The position numbers were made by a program, and so were the translations under genes. Below the pieces are notes generated by a model that was given only the letters and a program-made list of their open reading frames with translations, made no database searches and was not told the DNA's origin. Positions 9,330-17,300 of a stretch of 64,000 bases of DNA are shown piece by piece; within the stretch, counting starts at the first letter, position 1; every line of letters starts with the position of its first letter. The stretch is from Girardia tigrina (lineage: Eukaryota), in assembly GCA_001938485.1 (NCBI GenBank), contig MQRK01249566.1, positions 12,943-76,942 on the forward strand. Reading direction: 5' to 3'.

Positions 9330-10240
9330 ATGATGAGAAAAATAAATCTATCTTAATCAAAATTCGAAAGAAATCGCGCTACTTTTCAAACTTTCACTAA
9401 GTGAAGCGAGAACCTAAGCGTAAGACGCAGAATAAAACATCACATTCTCACGAAAAGAACAATTTACAATTTGAATTCAAATCATGAAAAGTGAATGCAT
9501 CAAAAATTAGAAATTTGTGCAATCTTCAGGTCTCTGTAAGAACGGCGATATTTAAAGAAAGACACGGGTTATGGATACAAAAATGTTATAAAGCAAAGTA
9601 ATTTGTCATAGAATGATAATCAGAAAAGAACGGAAATAATAAAATCATGTACTTCGGAAAATCATCAATGAGAACACATAATATTTTCGAATGAAAAACG
9701 CTTTTCACTTTACGGTCCCGATGACTGGTGATCTTATGTTGTAATATGATTACAAAAAATGAAAATAAACGACATAATAAAGATGTAAATATTATTATCT
9801 GGATGATATCCACGCACAATGGTATCATATCTTATAGATTTGTTGAAGGGAATTTGTATTCGATTGGTTGTATTAACATTTTAAAGTAGTGTACGGTGCC
9901 AAAGTTAAAGTTCAACTATATCAATGATATTGCTTTTTAGGTAGAAAATTCCAGTGTCTACAGAAATCCAGTGTTGTTCCAGAATCGTCCAAGAATTTAT
10001 GACTTCAACTAATATCAATATACTAAATTGCCATCTAAAAGTCCTGACTTGAACATAGTCGAAAACTGTTGGGAAATAATATCAGACAGAGTCTACGATA
10101 GAAAATTATATCAAAGCAAGAATGATTTAAGGGCGAAAATTAGTGATATTTTAAATGACATAAATGAGAATAAGAGAGAAAAAATTCAGTCTTTTTACAA
10201 ATTATCAAAGTCAATTATGTACAATATTAGAAAGACATAG
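9330..10240 (+). pseudogene. Decayed Tc1-like transposase
   Basis: FSNEKRFSLYGPD (~9685-9725, F-S-D-E motif) and PSKSPDLNIVENCW (10031-10075). Confidence 0.8.
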
Positions 10241-10399
10241 AAATTTGTGAAACAAATAAAGTGGTATTTTTTTAAATAAATGTTTTAAAATTTGTGACCG
10301 TTTGAAAGATTCAGAAAAATGAAGTTTTACAATTATTTTTGAAATGGAATCGTTTTAGTAACATGTGCTAAAATATAAACATTAATATTAAGAACATTT

Positions 10400-10840
10400 A
10401 GACAAGTCTCGTTTGAATGTTTATTACAATCACATTTAGAGTCATTATGACTCTCAGAAAGTCTTTCATCGTTTGCCATCATTCTAATTGGTTTTCTTAT
10501 TTCTGTTTTTAATCATGATTATTCGAACATTTTTTTTAAAATATTTAGCCTCTAAAAATATTAATTAAAAAAATAATAATTTTTTTCATTTTTCAATAAA
10601 TCTTAAAATAATAAAAATGTCATCAAATTATTAAAAATGCATTTAATTTAAATTTTACTAAAAAAATATTAAACTTAATTTTAATTGTGTTCGAATAGTC
10701 AATCACTTTAAATTTAAATAAAAAATACCAATTTCCATCTGGGTGGGAGAATCACCATTCTAAATTCAACATACTTAAATCAACATACAGCATCCATACA
10801 TTCACACATTCAAACAAATTAAAATATTCCTCACAAATTT
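10400..10840 (+). repeat. Dispersed repeat family with core CCATCTG(G/T)GTGGGAGA...CAACATAC...AATATTCCTCAC; other cores at ~31557, ~40648, ~45208, ~47248 (+) and ~48345-48432 (-)
   Basis: Same core motif preceded by ~400 bp of alignable AT-rich sequence in six places; 31200-31640 and 48340-48790 are clear inverted copies. Confidence 0.7.
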
Positions 10841-11130
10841 TATTGATTAAAATTAATCGATAAATTAATCGTAGTTCTAAAATGTATTTCAGTTTAGAGA
10901 AATTACAAATTATCACGATAACTGATATATTCATAACTGTGTCAATCGAAAAAATTGTAGTTTTATGTATATTAAATTTACATTAAAAAATAATTTAACC
11001 CACGGAATATGATACTATCATTAACTATATGAATCAATTGAATTCAAATTTGAAAATATATTGTTTCTAAGAATATATTATGTCGGATTCAATGTACAAA
11101 TTCTTACTGAGAAAAAAAAACCAGAATTAA

Positions 11131-11624
11131 ATGGAATACGAACAAATTGATACCAAAATCAAAATCCAAAATAACAAGAGAAAAACAGAATCGGTATCAA
11201 ATACAAATGTATATCAATGCGATGTGGACAAATCGCCCTCCCATGTTCCTCCCATAGCACCTCGAATACCAGAACTAATACCGAATATCGAGGATGCTAA
11301 GCACCTCGTTAGTCGCCAAGGCTTACTCCTGGTATATTTTTTGTAAGAAAATTTTTTTTACAGTATCGCCTGAATTTGGAAGCCAGACTCCCACTGGCAG
11401 TGGACACGATGCTGCAGTACCAATTAGTGATGGCACTACTGCAAGTGCAGCAATCGATCGAGTTCCTAGAAGATCACCAAACAACCGAAACGCTACAAAG
11501 TCAAAATCAAATAGTGAGAGACCTAATAAAGGAATTAAAAAGCGAGATGGGACTTCACTGGTTGACAACGGACCTTCTAGAGAAGGTGCGTCACGTCAAC
11601 CAAAGCGACGACGAGTCGCTGTAA
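11131..11624 (+). CDS. Unknown ~153-aa protein of the endogenous virus-like element, predicted spliced (11131-11331 + 11364-11624)
   Basis: Removing a 32-nt GT...TTTTTTTACAG segment (11332-11363) joins ORF 11131 in frame (phase 0) to ORF 11376-11624; GC-richer than the flanks. Confidence 0.5.
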
Positions 11625-11803
11625 AAGAAAATCAAAATAGGAAATTTATTTTTACCAAAGCATTTAATAATATTATTTTAGGTAGAGCAGCATATCCAAT
11701 CACACGAACTTGTAGAGGCAGAAACTACTACCTAAATATACGAAGAGACATTTTTGATAAATATAGGCAATTATCGAAAATTTATTATTTAATGAACTAT
11801 TAA
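11294..11803 (+). CDS. Overlapping Arg/Ser-rich 169-aa ORF with NLS-like PKRRR (virus-like accessory or structural protein?)
   Basis: Open frame overlapping the previous ORF, directly upstream of the Rep gene; no recognisable domain. Confidence 0.35.
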   Translation: MLSTSLVAKAYSWYIFCKKIFFTVSPEFGSQTPTGSGHDAAVPISDGTTASAAIDRVPRRSPNNRNATKSKSNSERPNKGIKKRDGTSLVDNGPSREGASRQPKRRRVAVKENQNRKFIFTKAFNNIILGRAAYPITRTCRGRNYYLNIRRDIFDKYRQLSKIYYLMNY

Positions 11804-11935
11804 TTTTTATGAGTTCAATGATATTTATTCATGAGTTGAATTACGATATGTTGATGATTTTTCTTTCCTTTTTTTATTGACTATCATTTTCATTATTATT
11901 AAATGACAAAAAATATTTATATAATATAATAATAG

Positions 11936-12903
11936 ACAACCTCCAAGCACAAATTGAAGAGATAGCTTCCTATGCCATAGGGCAGGAAGAGTTAAGTAAC
12001 GATGGATTCGCCCATATCGAGTTGTTTTTAACAACTCGATATAACACGACGCAATCTAATATCATGAAAAAGTTTAAAGTGTCATGGGCAAGACCCATAC
12101 CAATAGACGAAATTCAACGTTACATAGATTATGTAAGAAAGGAAGACACGAGAGTGTCTAACGGTATTAAAATCAAATATGGATCTCGCCCAAAGCATAG
12201 AGAAACAGAAGCGTTTTGGGTGAAATTCTTAAACTGCTCTACAATAGAAGAAGACATGGCGAGGCTAGAGCAAGAGCGTCCCATAGACTTTATAAGGTTT
12301 TTATCAAAATAATATTATTTTTATATAATTTTAACAGATATAGATCAAAATGCGAAGCAAAACTAATACAGAAATTTGGTAGAATTACCAAACCCGACTA
12401 CAACTATGGCTGAAAGACAGACTTCAAGCCATTTTTCTACGAAAATATTAATGGCATCAAAGAGATGCGATCACTATTATTCGAGGAAAAAGAAGAATTC
12501 GAAAAACCAATTTCGCCCTTTCCCACTTTGAAAACACCCAGCATGTCACAGGGATACACAAACAGGGAATCAGAAATTCCCTTATGATGGGGTCATCATT
12601 GACGACCTCCTGCTATGTGGGTGGAAAGTATCTGAAGTAAAATTATTTATTTAAAAACAAATTTATGATTCATTACAGGTACAAAACCTGCTTGACTGCA
12701 ACACCGAAGGCGAGGTGGTCGTCAAGTACGGTGCTGCTCTGATCGCCAAGAAAACACCACGAATCATATGCACAAATGCTCTCGAGTTTGTGATCAATCC
12801 CAATTGGCCCAAGATCAAAATAGATTCTTATCAAAGAAGAATAGCAGTGTACAACTTCGATAATTCGTTGTACGAAAATAAAGATAAGAAAAAAGACACT
12901 TAA
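11936..12903 (+). pseudogene. rep: CRESS-DNA-virus-type rolling-circle Rep (HUH endonuclease + SF3 helicase), intron-containing and frameshifted
   Basis: YAIGQEELSNDGFAHIELF (motif II), YIDYVRKEDTR (motif III YxxK), GKRRIRKT (degenerate Walker A, ~12485-12508), YDGVIIDDL (Walker B, 12583-12609), NLLD..VKYG (B'), PRIICTN (motif C), YQRRI (Arg finger); GT-AG introns 12297-12337 and 12637-12678 restore the frame. Confidence 0.85.
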
Positions 12904-13028
12904 AAAATACTCGTTAGACATAAAACTTTAAAAATTATTCAAGTTGACTTTATTTAAACGTTTAACTTTAATAAACTTTACTTCATTAAAGTCTTCATTC
13001 ATTATTTTCATTATTTTATTTAATTATA

Positions 13029-14358
13029 TTGGGTGTACAACTAATTAATTTCGTATTTTTTTGGTAAAAAAACCATTTATTTAAGTATAAAAGTGAAAAA
13101 ATATTTTATTCAAAATATTGTCCATTAGAAGCGACAACTTAATGCCATCTGTCAGGCAATTTATGGATTCCATCCCGAAAAAACTTCTCATCTTTTGCAC
13201 CGAGAAAGTCATCAAGCCATTTTTTAATACCTTCAACATTGGTGAACCGTATTCCAGAAAGGTGATTCTGCATCGACCGAAACAAGTGGTAATCAGAAGG
13301 AGCTATGTCTGGGCTATAAGGCGGGTGAGGTAGAATTTCCCATCCGGCATTTTCCAAATAATTTTTGACCGGTACTGCAACATGTGGTCGACCATTGTCA
13401 TGATGGAAAATCAATTTCTCGTGTCTGGTCGCCCATTCTGGCCGTTTTACGGCTATTGCTTGCTTCAAACGTATCAATTGTTGCCTGTATAGCTCTCCTG
13501 TGATCGTCTGGCCAGATTTTAATAGCTCATAGTACAGCACACCCTTCTGATCCCACCAAATACAGAGCATTACCTTCAAACCATGAATATTCGGCTTTGG
13601 TGACGATTTGGCTGGTTGGCCTGGCTTTCACATATGATCTTTTACGCTTTGGGTTGTCGTAATGAAACCACTTTTCATCGCCGGTGACAATACGATGTAA
13701 AAACGGTTTCTTTTTGTGGCAATTAAGCAGCATTTCAGACATGCAAAATCGTCTCTCAACGTCTCTCGGCTTCAATTCGTGTGGCACCCAATTTCCTTGT
13801 TCCTGAATGTATCCGGCTGCTTTTAAACGTTTAGAAATGGNNNNNNNNNNNNNNNNNNNNNNNNNNNNNNNNNNNNNNNNNNNNNNNNNNNNNNNNNNNN
13901 NNNNNNNNNNNNNNNNNNNNNNNCAAACTTTTTTGATGGACCTGATCGCTCTTTGTCTTCTGTGTCAAAATCGCCACTTTTAAATCGTGCAAACCCCTGC
14001 TGACATACTCTAACCTCTGGAGCATATTCAGGATAAGCTTCTAAGAGTAAACGATGTGCTTCTGTTGCACTTTTCCTTAAATTAAAGAACAAAAGCAAAC
14101 CTCCTCGCAAATGCTGTTTTGTTGGAACGTAATTTGACATTTTGACTGTAATAAAAAAAATTNNNNNNNNNNNNNNNNNNNNNNNNNNNNNNNNNNNNNN
14201 NNNNNNNNNNNNTGACTACATAAATAGATATGAGGTTAGTAACAAATTCGAAATGAGGTAACAAATATGAAATGAGGTAACAAATATGAAATGAGGTAAC
14301 AAATACGAATATAAGGTTATTTCGTAACAAACACGAAATTAATTAGTTGTACACCTAA
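13029..14358 (-). mobile_element. Mariner (DD34D), Mos1/mauritiana-like, near full length, frameshifted transposase 14140->13139
   Basis: TIR TT(G/A)GGTGTACAACTAATTAATTTCGT at both ends with TA TSD; WVPHEL, TGDEKW, HDNGRPH, YSPDIAPSDY; two N-runs inside; 19-bp tandem repeat in the 5' UTR. Confidence 0.95.
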
Positions 14359-14428
14359 TATGTAAAAATAATTATAGAAATTTGAACATAATTTAATGTT
14401 TTTAAATGTTAAAATGAAAAATATATTA

Positions 14429-14474
14429 TATACTACAACTCTATTGATTAATAAATCAATAGAGTTGTAGTATA
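14429..14474. repeat. Perfect 21-bp inverted repeat with 4-nt loop
   Basis: tatactacaactctattgatt-aata-aatcaatagagttgtagtata. Confidence 0.9.
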
Positions 14475-14867
14475 AAGATGTATTTTAAAAAAATATAAAC
14501 ATATAATTTAGTTACATATATGAAACCCATGTGTTATATGTATGTTATTTACCATCAAACAATACCTCATGAATCATATAATGTATCTCATCAACAATCA
14601 CAAGTACCTTGGTTACCATAACCATGGTACATAACCTCTTAATATTATATATAAAAAACAATGTATATATATATATAAAACCTTGTATTAATATATATTA
14701 TATCATTATAGTATATAACTATCTTATCAAATATTCAAAACGAGACCGTAACCATGTTACTATCGTCATGCATTTGTTATGCATCCATAATGTCAACGTA
14801 TTGCTCAGTTAAAATTGTATAGTATATATATTATTATTATATATTGTAGTGATCCTACATTTTCATT

Positions 14868-14871
<4 letters not shown>

Positions 14872-14910
<39 letters not shown>
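14872..14910. repeat. (TA)n microsatellite (others at ~24570, ~59920, ~61220, ~63750)
   Basis: Directly visible. Confidence 0.95.
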
Positions 14911-14914
<4 letters not shown>

Positions 14915-15664
14915 TAGTATATTAATATGTACATATGTATTAGTATATTAATATGTATATATATATACATTAAATTATGGATTGAAAAATTATAAAAATC
15001 AATGGAATTAAATTAAAATCCAAGTTGTCAATGACTATCGCCAGAGATCATTTCCAATCACATTTTTAATGGGTAAAATAAGTTGTTTCCATTGCACGAG
15101 GAAATGTAAAGGCAAGATGCTGAAAACGACGTGTTGTTTATCCGAAATACGACTTTGGAGACCCTCAGATTCGGATCGCATTAGTGCCGAATAGGATAAA
15201 TTTGGTTCGCTTAACGGGAAACAATCCGCCAGAATTCTTCAAATTCAAAGAGAGAATTCCATGTCAGATCATGTGATAACATGCAGTTGTGACATGACCA
15301 ACAATGAATCGTTTGACTACCTCACAAATATCATAAGCCACGGTTTATTATGACTATTTTTAACTGTCATACCGATAATTCGAATTTTTATGTGTAACTT
15401 TTATCTAGAATTTGATTTAATTAATCAGTCTTTCATTTCCTGTAACAAGTGAATGTGTTTTGTTTAAAGCACGTCAATGTTATTTTTATGTATGTCGTTA
15501 CATGTACCACCACGCAAACACATAATATGTTAACCATAGGTCGAAATAATAGATTTCTACCGTCCCAATCGAGTATGTAAGTATCCTGTACCAGCCAATG
15601 TCAGCGGATTTTTGTCGCATTGAGAAAATCACCAAATTGATTTCCATAATATTAGCCTCGACGC

Positions 15665-15880
15665 ATCCAACGGGAGCACTAATAATTTATCGGATTTTCT
15701 GGTTTAGTCGGTACTGGAAATCCATCCCACATGGCACTCTCGCCGACGAATTTCCATCAAACTACCGATAACTAAACCACTCGCATAGTGAGTTTTCACC
15801 CGATGAATGTTTAGTAGCAGTCTAAACATGGAATTAACATTTGTTCAGCAAATCTCATGTTGATGATTTCAGTTGACACA
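15665..15880 (-). repeat. GC-richer dispersed repeat containing a long hairpin (inverted copy at ~28220-28428)
   Basis: Shared gatggaaattcgtc..gagagtgccatgtg..atttccag..ctaaacc block. Confidence 0.75.
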
Positions 15881-16204
15881 TTTTTACTGGTACGGAAATA
15901 TACTTATTGCTGATATAGAACTCCGGAAAACAATCTATTTATTTCATACCATTAATACCAACAATCCTGAAACAACCTTATGTTAATCATACTAAATAAT
16001 AAATTTTCCAGATTATTTTTGTGTTTATTAATTTATTTAGTTAATGGAAGATAGAGATCCACTCACTCTCATTTTTCATTACATATATAATAAAAGTTGT
16101 TGTTTACAAGGTTTTGAATGAATACATGTATAACATGACTATTTTCAACAAACATTTATTTAAACAACAGAGACAAATATAACAAATATATACAATTGGA
16201 TCAT

Positions 16205-17300
16205 TCACAAGAATGTAACGTTATTGAAATATGCATTGTGCTCCTCCAATTTGATTGCTGCTTGAGCACCATAGAAATGTGTAAAGAACTTTTTACAAAT
16301 CTCCATCCTTCTGTGATGTTTTGATATTTTGGATTTTAATAGACACTTAAAGTTCTTGATACAGATGAAGTGCCTCTTTTCTCCATCATCTAGCAGGAGC
16401 AAATCCCTATCATCTTCTAATTCTTCCTTACACACAAGTAAGAGATAAAAGTTTGTACTCTCCAATCCAAAGATGTTTATTGAGACATTGTTGATGCTTT
16501 CAAATTTAGTGACTTCATCCAGATTCGGTGGGGATGATATACAGTTGAAGTCATATCTGTGTGGCAGCTTGTTATATTTCGATACTCGTGATGTATTATG
16601 TTGATCCTCAACGAATTTGGATAGCATAGCATACTTGAAGCACATGTTGTCATTATTTTGGACATTGATGCATGCCTTTTTATTAGCTATCCATTCAGGA
16701 AGGGGTATGTAGGAGCTACCTCTCATTGGGGAGTATTTATGAACATGGATAATCAATTAGTTAACTGAGGCAAGAGTCCATCCACTCTTCTTCCCCCCTT
16801 CTTTCATCGGCTTCCTTTATTATTTTGGCATGTTCTTCATTGAGCCACTCCAAAATATCATCGGATTTTAACATTGGCCAATTTTTTCTCTTGAAGTCTC
16901 TACGTGATAATTCATCATCAAAATTGATAAATGTTGCCTCTAATTTAAGGTTTACTTTAATTGCCTTTAGTTCATCCATGTTGTCTTGTAGAATCTCCAT
17001 GGTTTCAGTCTTGGAATATTTCAGAAACTCATTAAGACATGTAACCTGGCTGCCTAGGCTGCCTAGACTAGCCTGATGAGCTTTGATAACATATTGACGT
17101 ATCTTCTTATTCAATGAAGCTGCATGAATTGGTCTCTGTCTTGAAATTTTCGATAAAACATTTATGATATTTGAATCATTTACACGTTTTGATGGAACAT
17201 TTGCAGCCTTGGCAGCATTTGAAACATGTATCTCCATAGGAACATTTGAAACATTCTTCTCATTTGAAACATTTGGTGCTGCGAGAACTGGGTTACATAC
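16205..17300 (-). pseudogene. Maverick/Polinton-type protein-primed DNA polymerase B, N-terminal fragment
   Basis: IKVNLKLEATF, frameshifted SGWTL near 16775-16790, and YSPMRGSSYIPLPEWIANKKACINVQNNDNMCFKYAMLS ... FESINNVSINIFGLE ... LLLL...HFICIKNF, matching the conserved pPolB N-terminal region; truncated before the exonuclease/polymerase core. Confidence 0.75.

Follow-up and report, generated by a model that had tools for sequence, protein, structure and literature searches.

The stretch of Girardia tigrina DNA analysed here, called the window in the following, comprises 64,000 nucleotides (GCA_001938485.1, contig MQRK01249566.1, positions 12,943 to 76,942 of the forward strand). Positions 11131-13028 of its + strand are occupied by a decayed endogenous Rep gene encoding an HUH nuclease and an SF3 helicase. 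Exon 1 (11131-11331, with an uncertain start within 11080-11131) carries the 5′ part of an overprinted small ORF, for which tblastn found matches in seven loci; in the Rep frame it contains stops. It is followed by intron A (11332-11363), which has GT..AG ends and is 32 nt long, as compared with 45-50 nt in most scored paralogues. Exon 2 (11364-11639) is dual coding, with the small ORF in frame +1 (stop at 11622) lying over the Rep N-terminus in frame +3, which is basic and of low complexity. Frame +1 of this exon has matches in 17 of 60 loci and the Rep frame in 6 of 60; the frame +1 ORF is a homologue of ORF3L (E 4e-5) of PEVE, the extrachromosomal virus-like element from G. tigrina.

Likely intron B (11640-11681, 42 nt, 83% AT) leads to exon 3 (11682-11762), and intron C (11763-11935, 173 nt, 83% AT) to exon 4 (11936-12296); the donors of both introns are degenerate in the window copy. 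Exon 4 encodes the HUH endonuclease motifs II and III and a helical oligomerisation region. After intron D (12297-12337, 41 nt, phase 2, GT..AG, read-through stop at 12310) comes exon 5 (12338-12636) with the linker, Walker A and Walker B in a broken frame, and after intron E (12637-12678, 42 nt, phase 0, GT..AG, read-through stop at 12652) exon 6 (12679-12903) with the SF3 motifs B′, C and Arg finger and a stop at 12901. The exons of the window Rep are 55-64% AT, introns D and E 90 and 86%, respectively. The Rep 3′ untranslated region extends from 12904 to 13028; in paralogues ORF2 begins directly downstream.

An earlier note on this DNA had described a pseudogenised Rep with motifs scattered over several frames, and both points are borne out. 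Between 11936 and 12903 the motifs are present in different + frames: an HIE (motif II-like) at 12013, YxxK at 12130-12141, Walker A at 12485-12508, Walker B at 12592-12606, B′ at 12721, C at 12763 and the Arg finger at 12835. These motifs were placed via alignment to PCV2 Rep. The two GT-AG segments singled out in the note lie exactly at 12297-12337 and 12637-12678, are AT-rich and each contain an in-frame stop. Its expectation that excising both would mend the frame holds in part: the segments are intron-like, but the frame is still not open after excision of D and E, because exon 5 has a stop at 12411, a frameshift at about 12482 and a short deletion at about 12570. A degraded Walker A and the degenerate donors are further marks of a pseudogene. 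The acceptor suspected at 11935 is supported and closes the 173-nt intron C. For motif I, which the note could not locate, there is now a candidate at 11720-11740 in exon 3, proposed by position and by its likeness to the RNFxxS of intronless relatives and of PEVE; in the window copy it was singled out neither by the motif profile nor by pairwise blastp.

Position 13028, where the note had let the element end, is exactly the target site of a mariner (13029-14358, - strand) with TIRs, a TA target duplication and a Transposase_1 match (E 2.6e-26). The mariner is not viral, and its insertion cuts off the window Rep element at the 3′ side. On the left the element is bounded by a separate dispersed repeat (10381-10836), and a Tc1-like transposase remnant was recognized by eye at 9940-10230. 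No ORF2, capsid or E1/NS1-like gene was found in the window, the region beyond the mariner included. At 14513-14843 and 16076-16196 lies a high-copy non-coding repeat (3395 first-look candidates) split by a 1.2-kb insertion and, as far as tested, unrelated to Rep. This repeat at 14513 was considered as the 3′ end of the element and rejected, since in L075 it is located within ORF2 and it is also paired with other sequences upstream. An ORF on the - strand at 16208-16756 shows what we take to be a likeness to the N-terminal sequence of a Polinton/adintovirus-type polymerase. At another locus (L098) an ORF similar to it and a minor-capsid-like ORF flank a homologue of the capsid gene treated below.

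Among 151 proteins, PEVE Rep (P0003 = NP_476526.1) is the best blastp match of four window exons, with 45-63% identity per exon (exon 4, 45% to residues 1-102; exon 6, 51% to residues 208-272). The window pieces fall on residues 1-102, 153-180, 186-206 and 208-272 of PEVE Rep, which is itself continuous across the sites of introns D and E. No pairwise alignment to PEVE was obtained with the two linker pieces; the linkers are of similar length, 48 residues in the window versus 49 in PEVE. Together with a clade support of 98 in a quick tree, the top blastp match upholds the kinship with PEVE that the earlier note had suspected. A match to a Rep/SF3 profile, named in the note as a check, was also obtained: a family profile built from 27 natural stretches covers PCV2 Rep end to end, or nearly so (profile 20-296, E 3e-4), and matches duck circovirus Rep as well. 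Pfam assigned none of seven Rep-region pieces of the window exons (two of them off-frame) to a Rep family, and PEVE Rep itself has no Pfam match at the cut-off. The predicted structure of the Rep from an intronless relative (L053; mean pLDDT 84) matches the Reps of vientovirus, PCV2, AAV and duck circovirus, 7kij, 7kii and 9pqf being among the fold matches, and the Atlas groups PEVE Rep with the Cressdnaviricota Reps. By its profile and fold matches, the Rep of the window family qualifies as CRESS-type, with an HUH domain and a C-terminal SF3 helicase.

The introns were scored in a census of 29 loci, in which some rows are alleles or near-duplicates. GT..AG ends are present at intron D in 15 of 20 scorable loci (39-54 nt) and at intron E in 16 of 19 (43-50 nt); a random 40-65-nt skip in the window region has GT..AG-type ends 0.4% of the time. 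In paralogues the two introns interrupt the same codons, and their interiors are AT-rich, divergent and unalignable. In L041, the basal row of lineage A, to which the window belongs, intron E has a length of 0, a base-exact absence, and both introns are missing from L048, L049 and PEVE. Retained ends, divergent interiors and precise absence in relatives agree with the spliceosomal type proposed in the note, and the homologues that might have encoded protein through the supposed introns are without intron sequence rather than coding through it. Judged by these features, introns D and E are genuine spliceosomal-type introns.

Introns A, B and C are likely to be present upstream in addition to D and E, A and B being the weaker ones. 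Intron C has the GT in 9 of 12 scored rows, the AG in 8 of 12 and both in 6 of 12, and is absent in L046-L049, whereas the conservation of A (both ends in 1 of 5 scored rows) and of B (2 of 7) is weak. Other lineages have introns of their own: lineage B one late in the helicase, lineage C one after Walker A and lineage D one after motif II; L053 has none. Across the lineages, PEVE included, at least seven intron positions were counted in the Rep catalytic core, and it appears likely that the Rep genes of the PEVE group gained introns several times.

In run X1, the RNA status of which is a guess, two joints with GT..AG ends were found (11307-11364 and 11331-11387), each in one contig at a depth of 2-3; in each, a predicted end of intron A is paired with a cryptic site. 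No junctions at introns B-E were found in this run, in which D is without coverage and E is partly covered in unspliced form. Runs X2 and X4 had no match to the window, and X3 had one mariner contig.

PEVE is listed by NCBI as unclassified, with ORFs named ORF1L-3L. Its large segment (L149) is 5699 nt long, ambisense and provided with 243-nt inverted terminal repeats. Two GT..AG segments in it are not annotated. One (L149:3542-3589, 48 nt) has a stop in the Rep frame and interrupts the N-terminal frame; the other (L149:4028-4083, 56 nt) lies between motif I and the annotated Rep start and is matched in the alignment by a gap of exactly 56 nt in L152. Both are 69-73% AT versus 52%. The annotated PEVE Rep starts at motif II, with motif I upstream behind the 56-nt segment. 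The Rep of PEVE is thus likely to be spliced, with two unannotated introns. PEVE ORF1L (L149:210-1001) is homologous to the capsid-like family of the chromosomal copies (hhalign probability 100, in an alignment that includes the close relative L130), and we regard it as the putative capsid homologue of PEVE; the low-confidence model of the family matches parvovirus capsids. In the literature searched, which excluded most subscription journals and Repbase, no description of PEVE introns or of a PEVE capsid was found.

Downstream of Rep, paralogues of the window copy have a long ORF2 and then ORF3, the capsid homologue, both on the Rep strand; in L147 and L034 all three are colinear. A search with ORF2 gave 87 matches among 129 scored. 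ORF3 is homologous to ORFs of lineage D and to PEVE ORF1L. With a low-confidence model of the capsid from a sister lineage (mean pLDDT 40), the top 14 rows were all Parvoviridae (Z 8.5-10.7, rmsd 4.0-7.1 over 183-232 residues) and a circovirus capsid came lower (Z 8.1); Foldseek with this model agrees on parvovirus capsids. The capsid ORF itself, searched by sequence against the PDB, returned noise only. From the model, the capsid homologue of the relatives is predicted to be parvovirus-like.

ORFs for an E1/NS1-like helicase adjoin Rep or capsid in L050, L053, L061 and L130, and the Parvo_NS1 matches are on this separate helicase-only ORF, not on Rep. Among the loci sampled, an E1-like gene was never found in cis with a Rep of the window lineage. 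PLA2 is a separate ORF and occurs only in sister lineage D. In L061 a unit of 5.8 kb lies between inverted repeats; its Rep has, in this sister lineage, one intron after motif II. In L061:1-5779 and L063:4370-8560 the sister lineage has a capsid gene, an ORF with a PLA2 domain, a Rep and a convergent E1-like helicase. In L053:604-2611 an intronless Rep is followed on the same strand by an E1/NS1-like helicase, both ORFs being open; a protein 90% identical was found for L053 in a Logan assembly.

PEVE and L061 have a bounding pair of inverted repeats; none was found in 14 other loci tested, and the window copy is cut off. A perfect 21-bp hairpin is located in the window at 14429-14474, and of 26 other contigs that hold it 5 are also in the match lists of Rep, ORF2 or capsid. 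The hairpin is thus enriched beside the window lineage and occurs upstream of Rep in L031, L140 and L141, but most of its copies are without genes. It is possibly an origin or terminus sequence of the window lineage, the link being uncertain. Upstream of the window Rep there is no copy (score 42-46, against a 95th percentile of 43 and a maximum of 53 in shuffled sequence), the hairpin does not match the terminal repeat of PEVE, and a TATTAC-type nonanucleotide is absent from 10801-16300.

When its own genome was searched with exon 4 (HUH), at least 149 matches were obtained (149 of 150 scored; 359 candidates), and with exon 6 at least 144 (144 of 150 scored). Sixty stretches were fetched around chosen matches; this sample, which is not random, falls into six groups, namely the window lineage A, lineages B-E and near-PEVE copies. 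In a quick tree with noisy rows, the window is within lineage A (15 rows, SH-aLRT 97), which in turn forms a clade together with PEVE, B and C (support 98). For each of two exons, pN is smaller than pS in all 55 lineage A pairs, and pS is saturated in 50 of 55 and 52 of 55 pairs, respectively; the window's own pairs have a pN of 0.14-0.30 versus a saturated pS. Divergence of the lineage A copies therefore took place while the genes still functioned, and decay came later, which would point to many separate captures. Lesions are present in all close copies inspected, and the near-identical pairs examined have common flanks or the appearance of allelic contigs. The copies, PEVE-like ones included, are fragmented and rearranged; the genome in which they lie is 1.43 Gb in size, and mariner and Tc1-like repeats surround them. 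That ORF-based screens overlook such elements, as the earlier note had supposed, is true of the window lineage but not of sister lineages with long open frames, which are caught.

Word-index homologue searches, a weak method, gave two matches for L053 and two for A3, and for the alignment of the exons none among 7992 longer candidates. In 10 of 10 multi-copy regions picked (L050/L051, L056/L057, L067, L139, L146, L130, L069, L049, L034 and L058) every Rep piece is co-oriented, also where lineages are mixed. Such arrays may be likened to those of piRNA clusters.

The closest named Rep is that of PEVE, and the window lineage also has homologues of ORF1L and ORF2L (in paralogues only) and of ORF3L (in the window), the latter overlapping the Rep N-terminus in both. 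Unlike the window lineage, PEVE is without introns C, D and E and is ambisense, whereas the window lineage has all three genes, Rep, ORF2 and capsid, on a single strand; moreover, the window copy is integrated and dead, while PEVE is reported as not found integrated (PMC3198968). Section 8 of the same article presents PIVE (Repbase) as an integrated relative of PEVE, or repeat, in Schmidtea mediterranea (PMC3198968). By description, the window element is like PIVE in being an integrated PEVE relative in a planarian. Integrated PEVE relatives and spliced Reps were each already known.

The Oomyviridae (Lineavirales) have linear ssDNA, a circovirus-like Rep and a parvovirus-like, PLA2-bearing capsid, and are assigned likely stramenopile hosts (PMC12451638, PMC13426907). 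By description, they may be resembled here by a sister lineage with its PLA2 ORF and low-confidence parvovirus-like capsid model. They differ from the window family, which has a second, E1/NS1-like helicase and a multi-intron Rep and whose germline fossils, together with PEVE, suggest an animal host; this host would be a planarian, not a stramenopile. In the Parvoviridae one NS1 contains nuclease and SF3, whereas here a CRESS-type Rep and a separate ORF for a Parvo_NS1-type helicase are found. Mastreviruses and genomoviruses have single Rep introns, the host spliceosome joining the nuclease and helicase halves; there one intron is usual, here there are up to five, with at least seven core positions across the lineages. 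Helitrons have an HUH nuclease, introns and many copies, and their RepHel contains an SF1 (PIF1) helicase; Replitrons are not known to have a helicase or capsid. The window family shares HUH nuclease, introns and multiple copies with these transposons but has an SF3 helicase and a capsid homologue.

We therefore read the window copy, with a probability of about 0.85, as the broken, chromosome-embedded, intron-split Rep of a linear ssDNA virus related to PEVE, members of this group having been captured independently multiple times; the window lineage is known here from genomic fossils alone. The integration proposed in the earlier note thus stands, and of its two suggestions, virus or rolling-circle transposon, the former is favored, given the capsid homologue found in relatives and the synonymous saturation of the copies. 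Circular forms, which the note had wished to look for, are not the expected target because PEVE, the model virus, has a linear genome flanked by inverted terminal repeats. While the virus was active, its transcript would have been cut by the host spliceosome at up to five introns, and the spliced RNA would have yielded a Rep with HUH nuclease and SF3 helicase, domains assigned by homology and fold, whose activity is presumed. The alternative frame of the first exons would have given a small ORF3L-like protein. Rep may have nicked the terminal repeats for rolling-hairpin or rolling-circle copying, and the downstream ORF2 and jelly-roll capsid gene, present in paralogues and lost here, may have packaged the genome. 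The E1/NS1-like second helicase would belong to the same viral gene kit. Heritable cells, perhaps the stem cells of a fissioning animal, would have taken up many related viruses in independent events; after capture the window copy decayed by stops, frameshifts, loss of donors and the mariner insertion.

The main alternative is that the copies belong to a capsid-bearing, self-integrating element, inserted by its Rep as part of its cycle and multiplied within the genome as Polintons are. Liu et al. have reportedly termed parvovirus-like repeats transposons. The number of matches in the genome, at least 149, would suit such an element, and so would the unit of L061 between inverted repeats, the hairpin module found also without genes and the integrated repeat PIVE of Schmidtea (PMC3198968). 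Synonymous saturation in 50 of 55 and 52 of 55 pairs argues against it, however, as do the shared flanks or allelic look of the near-identical pairs examined, the fragmentation and rearrangement of copies, PEVE-like ones too, and the lack of common ends among the lineage A flanks compared in this fragmented assembly; we consider it rather unlikely.

The introns might also have been gained only after integration, in a Rep gene domesticated or amplified by the host. If run X1, of which this is a guess, is RNA, the window copy is apparently transcribed at a low level and its spliceosomal sites are used, and the only extant relative, PEVE, is without D and E. Yet this extrachromosomal PEVE has two GT..AG segments of its own, D and E are common to copies that diverged under purifying selection, and lesions are found in all close copies inspected, so that a gain after integration is very improbable. 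Since extrachromosomal PEVE shows two Rep introns, the splicing is likely viral. Conserved ends with variable interiors and lengths, precise absence in relatives and a chance rate of 0.4% make it scarcely conceivable that insertions rich in AT or errors of assembly, rather than introns, account for the segments; in favor of this reading is the absence of junction reads at D or E (D without coverage).

Beyond the viral reading of the window copy, we would give even odds to a wider proposal: PEVE and the fossils may form an unclassified family of animal viruses with linear ssDNA that combine a CRESS-type Rep, a parvovirus-type capsid and an E1/NS1-like helicase and have gained Rep introns repeatedly (at least seven core positions), and whose host hoards co-oriented arrays of fragments, possibly as a small-RNA antiviral memory. 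From an unclassified 'virus-like element' of 2002 with unnamed ORFs, PEVE would become one of a group of viruses that likely encode a capsid and have left a deep fossil record in the host genome, and its gene model is corrected to a Rep that is likely spliced and has motif I upstream of the annotated start. The features that stand out are the multi-intron Rep with lineage-specific gains, the re-annotation of PEVE capsid and introns, and the size of the fossil record. The group offers a compact system for viral intron gain, in which the introns present or lacking are placed on a tree, and represents a class of endogenous elements overlooked by ORF and Pfam screens. The stem-cell biology of planarians brings heritable capture and piRNA use within the reach of direct tests.

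Around the window family there is a large unnamed group of Reps (P0004-P0151), with 131 representatives at E ≤ 1e-30 and 1107 at E ≤ 1e-10; an informative name was attached to only one of the 20 clusters checked. Decayed and rearranged chromosomal copies with 85-91% protein identity to PEVE Rep are found in L150, L151, L154 and L155, some of them with pieces of the terminal repeat.
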